From a virus (taxonomy: Duplodnaviria > Heunggongvirae > Uroviricota > Caudoviricetes): DNA of 4,051 bases. The notes under the pieces were generated by a model. It was not told the origin of the DNA, did no database searches, and worked only from the letters and a program-made list of their open reading frames with translations. The DNA lies in the IMG/VR virus record IMGVR_UViG_3300029590_000195, positions 1 through 4,051 of that record. One strand, 5' to 3'. Below are positions 1-3,200 of the stretch, piece after piece. The position numbers were made by a program, and so were the translations under genes. Each line of letters begins with the position of its first letter. The first letter of the stretch is position 1.

Positions 1-1137
1 GTTGGTAACGCCAAAGCGCGCTCTACGGCGCTGGCGAACAGCAACGCGAGCGTGTTCACCATCAACTACGATAACCTTGTCTGGCTGGTTGAAGAATTGG
101 GAGAACGATGGCCGTTCGGTACTGTCATTCCAGATGAAAGCACCCGGCTAAAATCCTTCCGGCTGCGAGGTGGTGGTAAGCGCGCGGCGGCGCTGGGCAA
201 AGTGGCGCACAAGTATGTCCGGCGCTGGATAAATCTCACCGGTACGCCAGCACCGAACGGCCTGGTAGATTTGTGGGGACAATCGTGGTTTGTGGACCAG
301 GGGCAACGTCTCGGGCGCACTTACGGCGCGTTTACCTCACGCTGGTTTAATTCGATACAGTTTCCGGGACAGAGCTGGACTAAACTGGAGCCTTTTGCTC
401 ACTCACAGGGTGAAATACAGCGAGCATTAGCCGATGTGACCCTCTCGCTGGATGCGGCCGACTGGTTCGATATCAAAGCCCCCATCCATAACGTAATCCG
501 CGTGGATATGCCGCCGAAGGCCCGTCAGCAGTATCGTGAAATGGAAAAGGAAATGTTCCTCGAGCTGAATGGCGAAGGCATCGAAGCACCTAACGCCGCG
601 GCAAAGACACTGAAATGTCTTCAAATCGCCAGTGGCGCAGTATACACAGACGACACCGGAAGTTGGTCAGAACTGCATGACACCAAACTACAGGCGCTGG
701 ACAGCATACTGACCGAAGCAGCTGGCGCACCTGTGCTGGTTGCTTATCACTGGAAACACGATCTTGAACGCTTGCTTAAAGCATTCCCTCGCGGTCGTCA
801 CCTCGACCAGGATCCACAGACACTGCGCGACTGGAATTCCGGAAAGATTCCTGTTCTCTTTGCACACCCAGCCAACGCGGGCCACGGCCTGAACATGCAG
901 GACGGCGGAAATATACTGGTATTTTTCTCACACTGGTGGGACCTGGAGCAATATCAGCAAATTATTGAACGCATCGGGCCAACCCGGCAGATTCAGGCCG
1001 GACACAACCGCCCGGTGTTCATTCACCACATTATCGCCGCCGACACTATGGACGAAATGGTGATGGAGCGGCGCAACTCAAAACGAACAGTGCAGGACAT
1101 CCTGCTCGATGCCATGAAAAAGAGAGGTATAGCATGA
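1..1137 (+). CDS. SNF2-family (SF2) helicase, 5'-partial: the frame is open to the window's left edge, so the N-terminal part with Walker A lies upstream
   Basis: Frame 1 has no stop from position 1 to the TGA at 1135-1137; the track's GTG at 52 is probably internal. The translation carries SNF2 motifs in order: WPFGTVIPDESTRLKS (motif II, DEST in place of DEAH), INLTGTPAPNGLVDLWGQSWFV (motif III, LTGTP), and ERIGPTRQIQAGHNRPVFIHHIIAADTMDEMVMERR (motifs V-VI, resembling RAHRIGQ...TIEE). No Walker A is in the window, consistent with truncation. Confidence 0.8.
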   Translation, partial: VGNAKARSTALANSNASVFTINYDNLVWLVEELGERWPFGTVIPDESTRLKSFRLRGGGKRAAALGKVAHKYVRRWINLTGTPAPNGLVDLWGQSWFVDQGQRLGRTYGAFTSRWFNSIQFPGQSWTKLEPFAHSQGEIQRALADVTLSLDAADWFDIKAPIHNVIRVDMPPKARQQYREMEKEMFLELNGEGIEAPNAAAKTLKCLQIASGAVYTDDTGSWSELHDTKLQALDSILTEAAGAPVLVAYHWKHDLERLLKAFPRGRHLDQDPQTLRDWNSGKIPVLFAHPANAGHGLNMQDGGNILVFFSHWWDLEQYQQIIERIGPTRQIQAGHNRPVFIHHIIAADTMDEMVMERRNSKRTVQDILLDAMKKRGIA

Positions 1138-1334
1138 GCGAGAAACCCGACGATTTACTCACCCCGGATGAAGTATGCCAAAAGTTAGGTATTACACAGA
1201 AAACGCTATGTGAGTGGAATATTAAGCATCGTCATCGGGCTATCCTGGCTCCAATTCGTTTCAGTGCAAAAGTAGTTCGTTATGAGCGCCGAAATGTCGA
1301 CGCTTTTATTCAAAAGTGTCGCAGCCAGTATTAA
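1134..1334 (+). CDS. Small HTH_17 / AlpA-type DNA-binding protein, likely excisionase or recombination directionality factor
   Basis: 66-aa ORF whose ATG overlaps the helicase stop (ATGA at 1134-1137), suggesting translational coupling. LLTPDEVCQKLGITQKTLCEW...VVRYERRNVDAFI matches the helix-turn-helix pattern of Xis/AlpA-family proteins. Sits immediately next to the integrase. Confidence 0.7.
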   Translation: MSEKPDDLLTPDEVCQKLGITQKTLCEWNIKHRHRAILAPIRFSAKVVRYERRNVDAFIQKCRSQY

Positions 1335-2728
1335 CCTCGCCGCCGTAGCAATGCAACCTGCGCAAGTATGCTCCGCTCGTGAGCCTCGAAAGCTTCGCGC
1401 TTCAACGCAATATCTTCCTGCAAAATCTCATCAGAAAAGTCGTAATGTTCTGCCATCGGGTCATCTGACTTGCTGGAGTGGTGAAGGCAAAGGAGGCTGA
1501 TTTCCCTTCGGTCTGATCGGGAATAGCCTCTTTCCTTCATCAAGGCAATAACATTGCTCTTAAAGAATTTACGGCACATCGTATTAAATGCACCGTCTTT
1601 CCCTTTAACAGTCCCATCATGTTTTATTCCTTTTACAGCCCCATCCGGGCTGTATGTTTTCACTAGCTTATCCAGTGATCGTTTTGAAAATGGCTGCATT
1701 GGATCACGCGGCTGCAAAAATACATAATCCCTGTTGCACTCAGGAACTGAATCACGCCATGCTTTCTGCTCGTCGATAATCCGCCGGATCTCCGGCGTTA
1801 TTGGCAGGCGGAAAGCCTTTTGTGTTTTCATAGCCCCTCGCATGCCGATAACCCCTTCAGGATAAACAATTTCGCCAGTCTCCTCCTGAACGTAGTCCCA
1901 GCGCAGGTTATGGACATTAATCGGACGAACGCCGGTGATGATCATGAAGCGAACAGCATTCTTCTGGTGTACAGAGGTGCAGGCGGCAACATTGAGCCAG
2001 AGCCGGGCGATTGACTCAATATCGGTAAAAAGCCGTGTGGGGGTGGGTTTCTGTACGCGGGAGGAAACATAATCATCTGGCAGACTGGCGGCAACATTGC
2101 GGCCATTGCAAAGAGTAGGTGCGCAGAACTTCCAGAACCGACGGAGCTCGGCAAACAACTCCAGGGCGTTATTGTTCGAGCGAGTGGCGATCCACTCGTC
2201 CAGCACTTCCACCAGCCGATTGTATGTTACGTCGCTGAACACCTCGCGCTCGCCGAACGTGGCTTTAATCCGGTCGATACGCACCCCGTAGGTTGTGAAA
2301 CTGTCCGGGCTCAGCTTCTGCCGGGCTACTTTAGCTTTGAGGTCATCCCGGTACATTTCCAGCGCTGCATGTACGGACTCCGCCCGCAGTCCACCGTCAG
2401 CCATACCTAGTGCTTTTTCGCGCGCCAGCTGGATAGCGAGCTCCGGCCACTCGCCGAGCTTTTTACCTTTGAGGCCCATCTTTTTTGGAAACTCGGCGTA
2501 AAATGTAACCTTACCGGCTTTGCTGAAATCGATACGGAGATAGTTCTCTTTTTCGTATTTGGAACGGCGAGCCACGCCGGAAGCAGCGAGGATGATTTTG
2601 GCGGCAGCAACACAGATTTTCATGTGTGCGCTGGTATAGGGGGGTTTACAGGCGTCCCATTTTTCAGATGCGGCTAAAACATCGTCATTATTGGGGCTAT
2701 CCGGATTATGTGTTACAGTGCGCGGCAT
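1331..2728 (-). CDS. Tyrosine-type site-specific integrase (phage/island integrase), divergent
   Basis: Long minus-strand ORF (track: 1331-2734 from a TTG). The first ATG is at 2728, preceded by AAGGA (rc of 2735-2739) at about 6-nt spacing; a further in-frame ATG at 2623 has no obvious SD. Translation has an arm-type N-terminal region (YLRIDFSKAGKVTFYAEF...KLGEWPELAIQLAREKA), a box I Arg (ITGVRPINVHNLRWDYV) and a C-terminal LCLHHSSKSDDPMAEHYDFSD with candidate catalytic His and Tyr. Stop codon overlaps the stop of the convergent small HTH gene (TTAA at 1331-1334). Confidence 0.85.
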   Translation of the reverse strand: MPRTVTHNPDSPNNDDVLAASEKWDACKPPYTSAHMKICVAAAKIILAASGVARRSKYEKENYLRIDFSKAGKVTFYAEFPKKMGLKGKKLGEWPELAIQLAREKALGMADGGLRAESVHAALEMYRDDLKAKVARQKLSPDSFTTYGVRIDRIKATFGEREVFSDVTYNRLVEVLDEWIATRSNNNALELFAELRRFWKFCAPTLCNGRNVAASLPDDYVSSRVQKPTPTRLFTDIESIARLWLNVAACTSVHQKNAVRFMIITGVRPINVHNLRWDYVQEETGEIVYPEGVIGMRGAMKTQKAFRLPITPEIRRIIDEQKAWRDSVPECNRDYVFLQPRDPMQPFSKRSLDKLVKTYSPDGAVKGIKHDGTVKGKDGAFNTMCRKFFKSNVIALMKERGYSRSDRREISLLCLHHSSKSDDPMAEHYDFSDEILQEDIALKREAFEAHERSILAQVALLRRRG

Positions 2729-2740
2729 TCTCAATCCTTA

Positions 2741-2933: not shown

Positions 2934-3200
<267 letters not shown>

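Follow-up and report, generated by a model that had tools for sequence, protein, structure and literature searches.

The DNA analysed here, referred to as the window, is a stretch of 4,051 nucleotides, and the features assigned to it are collected in Table 1. Frame 1 is open from nucleotide 1 to the TGA at 1135-1137, which gives 379 codons when read directly from the sequence. There is no start codon for this gene within the window, indicating an ORF cut at its 5' end of which the C-terminal 378 amino acids are encoded here. The product is a helicase, and its gene is followed by a small helix-turn-helix (HTH) gene and by a tyrosine integrase gene (int) on the opposite strand. The HTH and int genes are convergent and overlap by 4 nt, the TTAA at 1331-1334 holding both stop codons. 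Beyond int the window contains yfhL, shoB, and the end of acpS.

Table 1. Features of the window, with positions in nucleotides of the 4,051-nucleotide stretch.
Feature	Position	Strand	Details
SNF2-family DNA helicase/translocase gene, 3' 82%	1..1137	+	378 codons plus stop of a 463-aa protein
Motif II (Walker B) DEST, followed by RLKS	133..144	+	D45-E46-S47-T48, gat gaa agc acc
Helicase/HTH junction	1122..1137	+	SD-like GAGAGG 1122-1127 in the helicase 3' end; ATGA 1134-1137
66-aa HTH gene, probable excisionase/recombination directionality factor	1134..1334	+	HTH_17, phrog_4745, phrog_66
Tyrosine integrase	1331..2734	-	Pfam Phage_integrase 6e-7, 29.8 bits, cut-off 27.1; RefSeq tyrosine-type recombinase/integrase
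Prophage/host junction (int-proximal att)	2953..2990	.	in the yfhL 5' end; 18-bp core AATTGTGATATGTGTGAA at 2973-2990

Genomes with 98-99% identity to the window supplied the sequence upstream of it. In locus L001, from the RefSeq genome that matches best (E. coli, NZ_AP042574.1, 98.8% identity), the full-length helicase gene occupies L001:19746-21137 (1392 nt, 463 aa), and its product differs from the protein encoded in the window at 5 of 378 residues. The first-pass annotation had placed the N-terminus of the helicase beyond the window, in agreement with this length and with the missing start. Helicase motif I lies outside the window and motifs II-VI lie inside it. The window fragment is without most of the SNF2-rel_dom domain and by itself gives only a sub-threshold match to Helicase_C in Pfam, and the full-length gene from the near-identical genome was used instead.

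Assignment of the full-length protein to the SNF2 family, which had been proposed from the window alone, is borne out by Pfam, by alignment to Snf2, and by structure comparison with Foldseek. The match to Pfam SNF2-rel_dom (PF00176) has an E-value of 9.6e-12 and a score of 45 bits against a cut-off of 24.9, and PHROG 62 (phrog_62, 'DNA helicase') is matched over residues 1-461 at an E-value of 4.4e-156. The ORF is not a chance reading, because 7900 database proteins match it at E<=1e-10. In HMMER the protein aligns to yeast Snf2 at 4e-11, with LTGTPAPNGLVDLW of the helicase opposite LTGTPLQNNLPELW of Snf2. The ATPase motifs GMGKT, DESTRLKS, LTGTPAPN, SAGHGLN, and QQxxERxxxxRQ are aligned to the Snf2 motifs and are invariant in alignment A1, in which the invariant residues include G33, G35, K36, T37, D133, E134, S135, T136, G169, T170, and P171 as well as G382, H383, G384, Q407, Q408, R412, R417, Q418, and G422. 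An AlphaFold (AF2) model of P0002, a homologue with 94% identity, has a pLDDT of 85.7 and a pTM of 0.79 and displays the two-lobe SNF2 fold with helical protrusions; its top 50 matches in the PDB are all SNF2-family ATPases, among them CHD4, ISW1, INO80, SsoRad54, and Rad54, with E-values of ∼1e-21 and TM-scores of up to 0.72. The phage helicase thus has in common with the cores of Snf2, ISWI, INO80, and Sulfolobus SsoRad54 the two-lobe RecA fold and the SNF2-specific helical insertions, and its LTGTPAPNGL aligns with LTGTPLQNNL of the eukaryotic and archaeal SNF2/Rad54 cores. Identity to these cores is ∼18%, and chromatin-targeting or accessory domains are absent. The protein is a minimal SNF2 core, consisting of two RecA lobes with helical insertions and no extra domains, and unlike its eukaryotic and archaeal counterparts it would by analogy have naked phage DNA as its substrate.

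Motif II differs between the two groups, ending in S-T in the phage helicase and in G/A-H in the eukaryotic and archaeal SNF2/Rad54 cores. In the HMMER alignment IPDESTRLKS of the helicase stands opposite IIDEGHRMKN of Snf2, and DEST is therefore truly motif II; DESTRLKS corresponds to the SNF2 signature DE[AG]HR[IL]KN. The fourth position of DEST lacks the His or Asp of the canonical DExH and DExD boxes, and this departure could mark an ATPase-dead or decoupled SNF2 protein having a structural or regulatory role only. The first-pass annotation had likewise called DEST an unusual variant that might or might not retain full ATPase coupling. Among homologues DEST is instead the norm. It is present in 120 of 121 close homologues (66-94% identity). 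An exhaustive HMMER search gave 18,158 representatives of 50%-identity clusters at E<=1e-3, and motif II was tallied in the best 150 of these (39-94% identity, mostly 39-60%), 140 of which could be aligned across the motif. DEST is the commonest form in these 140 representatives (65), followed by DESS (23), DEAT (11), and DEAS (7); DES[ST] accounts for 88 of the 140, and neither DEAH nor DEGH occurs in any of them. The homologue of a Staphylococcus phage has DELS.

These comparisons weigh heavily against loss of catalysis. Both the catalytic D and the catalytic E are present, S or T at positions 3 and 4 is normal for the family over the 39-94% identity range, motifs I, III, V, and VI are invariant, and the whole site is strictly conserved in thousands of phage genomes, pointing to purifying selection for catalysis. 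An ATPase-dead or decoupled protein is extremely unlikely. As judged from sequence comparison, DEST is the normal motif II of PHROG 62-type phage helicases and bears no sign of lost ATPase coupling.

Some relatives are considerably longer than the window helicase. Among the 150 best cluster representatives (P0121-P0270), 27 have at least 700 aa, and for many of the long ones the match to the query is split into two stretches, the pattern expected of intein insertions. In two of them 'HN|CT' is aligned with motif II, which suggests that an intein is inserted at the Walker B site itself.

In a Megablast search of 5426 complete E. coli genomes the yfhL-acpS part of the window is found everywhere and at least 80% of the window in only 156 genomes, and the window therefore carries an accessory element. 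Homology to E. coli K-12 starts at window position 2953, and the 18-mer that forms the core of the int-proximal junction recurs at the other prophage end (L002:2340-2357). Read from these junctions, the prophage lies within the 5' end of yfhL rather than next to it. Prophage insertion at yfhL has been published before (PMC3603311, PMC12029490). At this site yfhL stays intact, with a phage-supplied start, MSLLITKR..., replacing the native MALLITKK... (window 2943-2990; L002:2311-2357), and the gene is presumably under phage-derived upstream sequence.

The element in L001 is a complete temperate phage in which the helicase is last in its replication block. On the helicase strand, from upstream to downstream, the genes encode a LexA-like repressor, two small ORFs, DUF2800, DUF2815, Nmad5, a family-A DNA polymerase (PolA), ANR, DUF4406, a small PD-(D/E)XK nuclease, and the SNF2 protein. 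The SNF2 gene is followed by HTH, int, and yfhL in both L001 and L062 (E. coli STEC1590). L062 likewise has DUF2800, DUF2815, DNA polymerase, ANR, DUF4406, VRR-NUC/PDDEXK, and SNF2 genes in one orientation, and its other arm contains repressor, cro-like HTH, VapE, Q, lysis, and head genes. The opposite arm of L001 contains a cro-like HTH gene, a VapE primase/helicase, Q, lysis genes, terminase, and head genes. Pfam supports DNA_pol_A, DUF2800/PDDEXK_1, Enc34_ssDNA-bd (DUF2815), and VapE in this block. The small nuclease matches Pfam VRR_NUC at 1e-3 and 19.5 bits, below the curated cut-off of 23.8, and phrog_93 'endonuclease' at 1.5e-31. The early block is interrupted by two short reverse-strand ORFs. 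A 236-aa reverse-strand ORF at L001:18997-19707(-) between VRR-NUC and SNF2, has no match in Pfam, PHROG, or PADLOC, and the block is not strictly uninterrupted.

The VRR-NUC/SNF2 gap and the site after PolA are variable cargo slots; the former holds Arc/Arc/Rha regulators in STEC1590 (L062:18132-19696) and the latter a TIR-like domain protein in phage vB_EcoM-606R2 (L002:38874-41286). The STEC1590 element, with the same SNF2-HTH-integrase end and the same PolA/VRR-NUC module (L062 3113-4348 and 19740-22725), is a Stx2b-converting prophage at yfhL that carries stxA2b/stxB2b between Q and the lysis genes; in L001 this slot is free of stx. The GenBank record ON470579.1 (L002, 'Escherichia phage vB_EcoM-606R2') contains the host genes tadA, pgpC, and yfhH at 1-2254 and ends at the helicase, and its appearance is that of a mis-trimmed prophage region from which xis and int are missing, not of a packaged phage genome. 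The replication module of L001 also includes an Nmad5 'nucleotide modification' protein (15120-15758) and the DUF4406 protein (18433-18732), which hint that nucleotides or DNA may be modified in this lineage of phages; Nmad5 homologues are also present in relatives from Xenorhabdus, Providencia, and Morganella.

The same gene order extends far beyond these prophages. A synteny scan that took a single genome from each species yielded 58 loci, most of them in genera of the Enterobacterales and a few in other bacteria, and counts were restricted to the 48 loci having at least 5 kb upstream of the helicase. In these 48 loci the upstream region contains PolA in 44, VRR-NUC in 41, DUF2815 SSB in 36, and DUF2800 in 36, and the order PolA, VRR-NUC, SNF2 is kept in 41 of the 48, in other bacterial species. 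In Staphylococcus phage phiSa2wa the order is PolA ... VapE, VRR-NUC, helicase. In tblastn 1634 of 50,697 phage records contain the helicase, and coverage is at least 80% in 1536 of these; the hosts include Salmonella, Escherichia, Streptococcus, Staphylococcus, Bacteroides, and Pseudomonas. The helicase also occurs in the strictly lytic Jersey-, Chi-, and Dhillon-like phages. The same replication module has been described in Enterobacter phage Enc34 (PMC5686142) and in Streptococcus Phi1207.3 (PMC4260502), and linkage of PolA and SNF2 is common in viromes (PMC6302109); SNF2 is not discussed by Kazlauskas et al. 2016 (PMC4889955).

The first-pass annotation had set the helicase outside the int/xis module and had named replication as one option, but regarded the choice among replication, defence, and something new as undecidable from the window and proposed reading leftward. 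Its first two points agree with the extended locus, in which the helicase closes a PolA/VRR-NUC replication block. Read in the near-identical genomes, the region upstream of the helicase is a standard phage replication block (L001 and L062) with VRR-NUC and polymerase, and the VapE primase lies in the opposite arm. This block, the placement in PHROG 62, and the conserved synteny decide the question in favour of replication, this being the outcome that the first-pass annotation had named as a refutation; a reading as something new is not supported. Positions 1-1137 are accordingly read, with a probability of about 0.9, as the distal part of an SNF2-type helicase gene that is the last gene in the replication block of a temperate phage in E. 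coli yfhL.

The defence option, that the SNF2 protein is a prophage-borne anti-phage component resembling DrmD of DISARM, ZorD of Zorya, or DpdE of Dpd, draws on the frequent presence of defence islands near prophage ends and on matches in PADLOC to DpdE (2.4e-12), ZorD (6.3e-11), and DrmD (1.1e-5). These matches are confined to the generic SNF2 N-lobe (residues ∼20-200), which the phage helicase has in common with all three proteins; the defence models are 750-1280 positions long. The NCBIfam defence models score 14-15 bits against cut-offs of 950-1500, or ∼1% (DrmD, NF038318, 14.2 bits against 950; ZorD, NF041790, 14.9 bits against 1500), and the phrog_62 match is better than the defence-model matches by more than 140 orders of magnitude. 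DrmD, ZorD, and DpdE are 2-3 times larger than the 463-aa helicase, have extra domains, and need partner genes, whereas the helicase has no nuclease or other accessory domain and the partner genes are absent from its locus. The genes annotated in L001 and L062 within 20 kb upstream of the helicase, and those annotated downstream of it, include no DUF1998, PLD, or methyltransferase partner, and the 20 kb upstream contain no DrmA/B/C/M, ZorA/B/C, or Dpd partner. Moreover, the helicase is kept in strictly lytic phages, where a host-defence role makes no sense. The likelihood of a defence function is close to negligible, and replication is retained as the function of the block that the helicase closes.

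At its 3' end the helicase gene is tightly joined to the HTH gene. Its TGA at 1135-1137 overlaps the HTH start ATG at 1134-1136, as the first-pass annotation had reported, with GAGAGG six nt upstream of the ATG, and an identical 4-nt overlap is annotated in the RefSeq entry for STEC1590. The HTH protein matches Pfam HTH_17 at 1.3e-5 and 25.8 bits, marginally below the cut-off of 27, phrog_4745 'DNA binding protein' at 3.6e-27, and phrog_66 'excisionase and transcriptional regulator' at 7e-6. Annotation of the HTH gene is inconsistent: it is unannotated in L001 and elsewhere named 'helix-turn-helix transcriptional regulator' or 'AlpA family transcriptional regulator'. Of the 58 loci, 5 have the HTH type or the integrase type of the window, and each of these 5 has both. 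This co-occurrence supports the 66-aa HTH protein as the cognate directionality factor of the integrase and as its probable excisionase/RDF.

The 4-nt overlap with its internal SD, together with the retention of this arrangement in every inspected E. coli genome and in five further genera that have this cassette, might be taken to mean that the helicase and the HTH/excisionase form a dedicated pair, in which the helicase would aid excision or couple it to the onset of replication and the ATGA overlap would reflect required stoichiometric co-expression. The wider set of loci argues otherwise, as the HTH and integrase types of the window are limited to the five helicase loci named above, and the HTH gene tracks the integrase and not the helicase. 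In other loci the gene after the helicase is DUF4224, PrtN/PyocinActivator, AlpA, a lambda-type Exc, another HTH_17 protein, or an unknown, and unrelated small genes (with an ATGA overlap in ∼22 related loci, counted from the per-locus listing) or host genes directly take the place of the HTH gene. In lytic phages the helicase occurs without any xis or int. Since the downstream gene is interchangeable among relatives, a dedicated pairing is rejected as very unlikely. Within 3.5 kb downstream of the helicase, 30 tyrosine-integrase ORFs are found from ∼45 loci, and the host genes beyond the cassettes are pdxJ, uvrC, folD, cysS, icd, and sbcB. The replication block has the helicase as its conserved last gene, and the int/xis cassette that follows can be exchanged. 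Overlapping stop and start codons are generic in compact phage operons, and the ATGA overlap, so far as the sequences indicate, reflects the usual dense packing of such operons and not a particular partnership of helicase and Xis.

By analogy with SNF2 enzymes, the helicase would hydrolyze ATP and translocate on double-stranded DNA. Its membership in the SNF2 superfamily and its VRR-NUC neighbour suggest that helicase and nuclease probably act together to remodel and resolve branched replication or recombination intermediates, with VapE as the likelier replicative helicase-primase. Because the helicase gene ends the early block, it adjoins the integration cassette, and with its stop codon overlapping the start of the excisionase-like HTH gene, the excisionase probably shares transcription and translation with the early replication genes once the prophage is induced, as the gene spacing suggests. 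The gene int runs convergently and presumably has a promoter of its own. The HTH/int overlap leaves no intergenic room for a terminator; since there is no such space, read-through from the early operon would be antisense to int. A terminator-like hairpin lies within int at 1634-1654 (+), and such matches do not rise above the shuffled background, the promoter and terminator scan having given counts no higher than in shuffled sequence (8 against 5.7 expected and 6 against 4.4).

This layout resembles that of the lambda pL operon, which runs through recombination genes and then xis/int. As in lambda, the early block on the repressor-proximal arm appears to end at an excisionase next to att, and by analogy with pL, which reads into xis, Xis would be expressed here on induction. 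The two differ in that int is convergent in the window prophage and co-directional in lambda, and in that the block contains a PolA-type replication module here and exo/bet/gam in lambda.

That the minimal SNF2 ATPase has a role other than assisting replication is also very improbable; it might, for example, be part of a phage-specific fork-reversal/resolution machine with VRR-NUC, or it might strip phage DNA of host proteins or defence factors. If such a role were true, the position of the gene directly before xis would time its activity to prophage excision or in-situ replication.

The closest known proteins are the PHROG 62 helicases of siphophage replication modules. They have the same size (∼460 aa), match the profile over their full length, and have the same DE[SA][ST]xLK motif II, and their neighbours are, as here, PolA, DUF2815 SSB, DUF2800, VRR-NUC, and VapE/primase; examples are found in Enc34, in Chi-like and Jersey-like Salmonella phages, in Staphylococcus phiSa2/2638A, and in Streptococcus Phi1207.3 (orf25). 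There is no substantial difference between the window copy and these proteins, the window copy being in a temperate E. coli phage and adjoining a yfhL-specific int/xis cassette. The helicase is already known, as a routinely annotated phage DNA helicase whose module has been described in many phages. A full-text literature search on phage SNF2 helicases returned genome-annotation papers and comparative surveys only, with no enzymology or genetics. We know of no PHROG 62-type phage SNF2 member that has been characterised biochemically or genetically, and this gap in enzymology is general, covering the very widespread phage SNF2/VRR-NUC pair.

The helicase gene itself has little weight as a discovery, and its value lies in the correction of the defence flag and of the description of DEST as unusual. 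DE[SA][ST] is the usual Walker B of PHROG 62-type phage helicases, and in enterobacterial prophages an SNF2 gene next to int/xis is not to be marked as a defence candidate.
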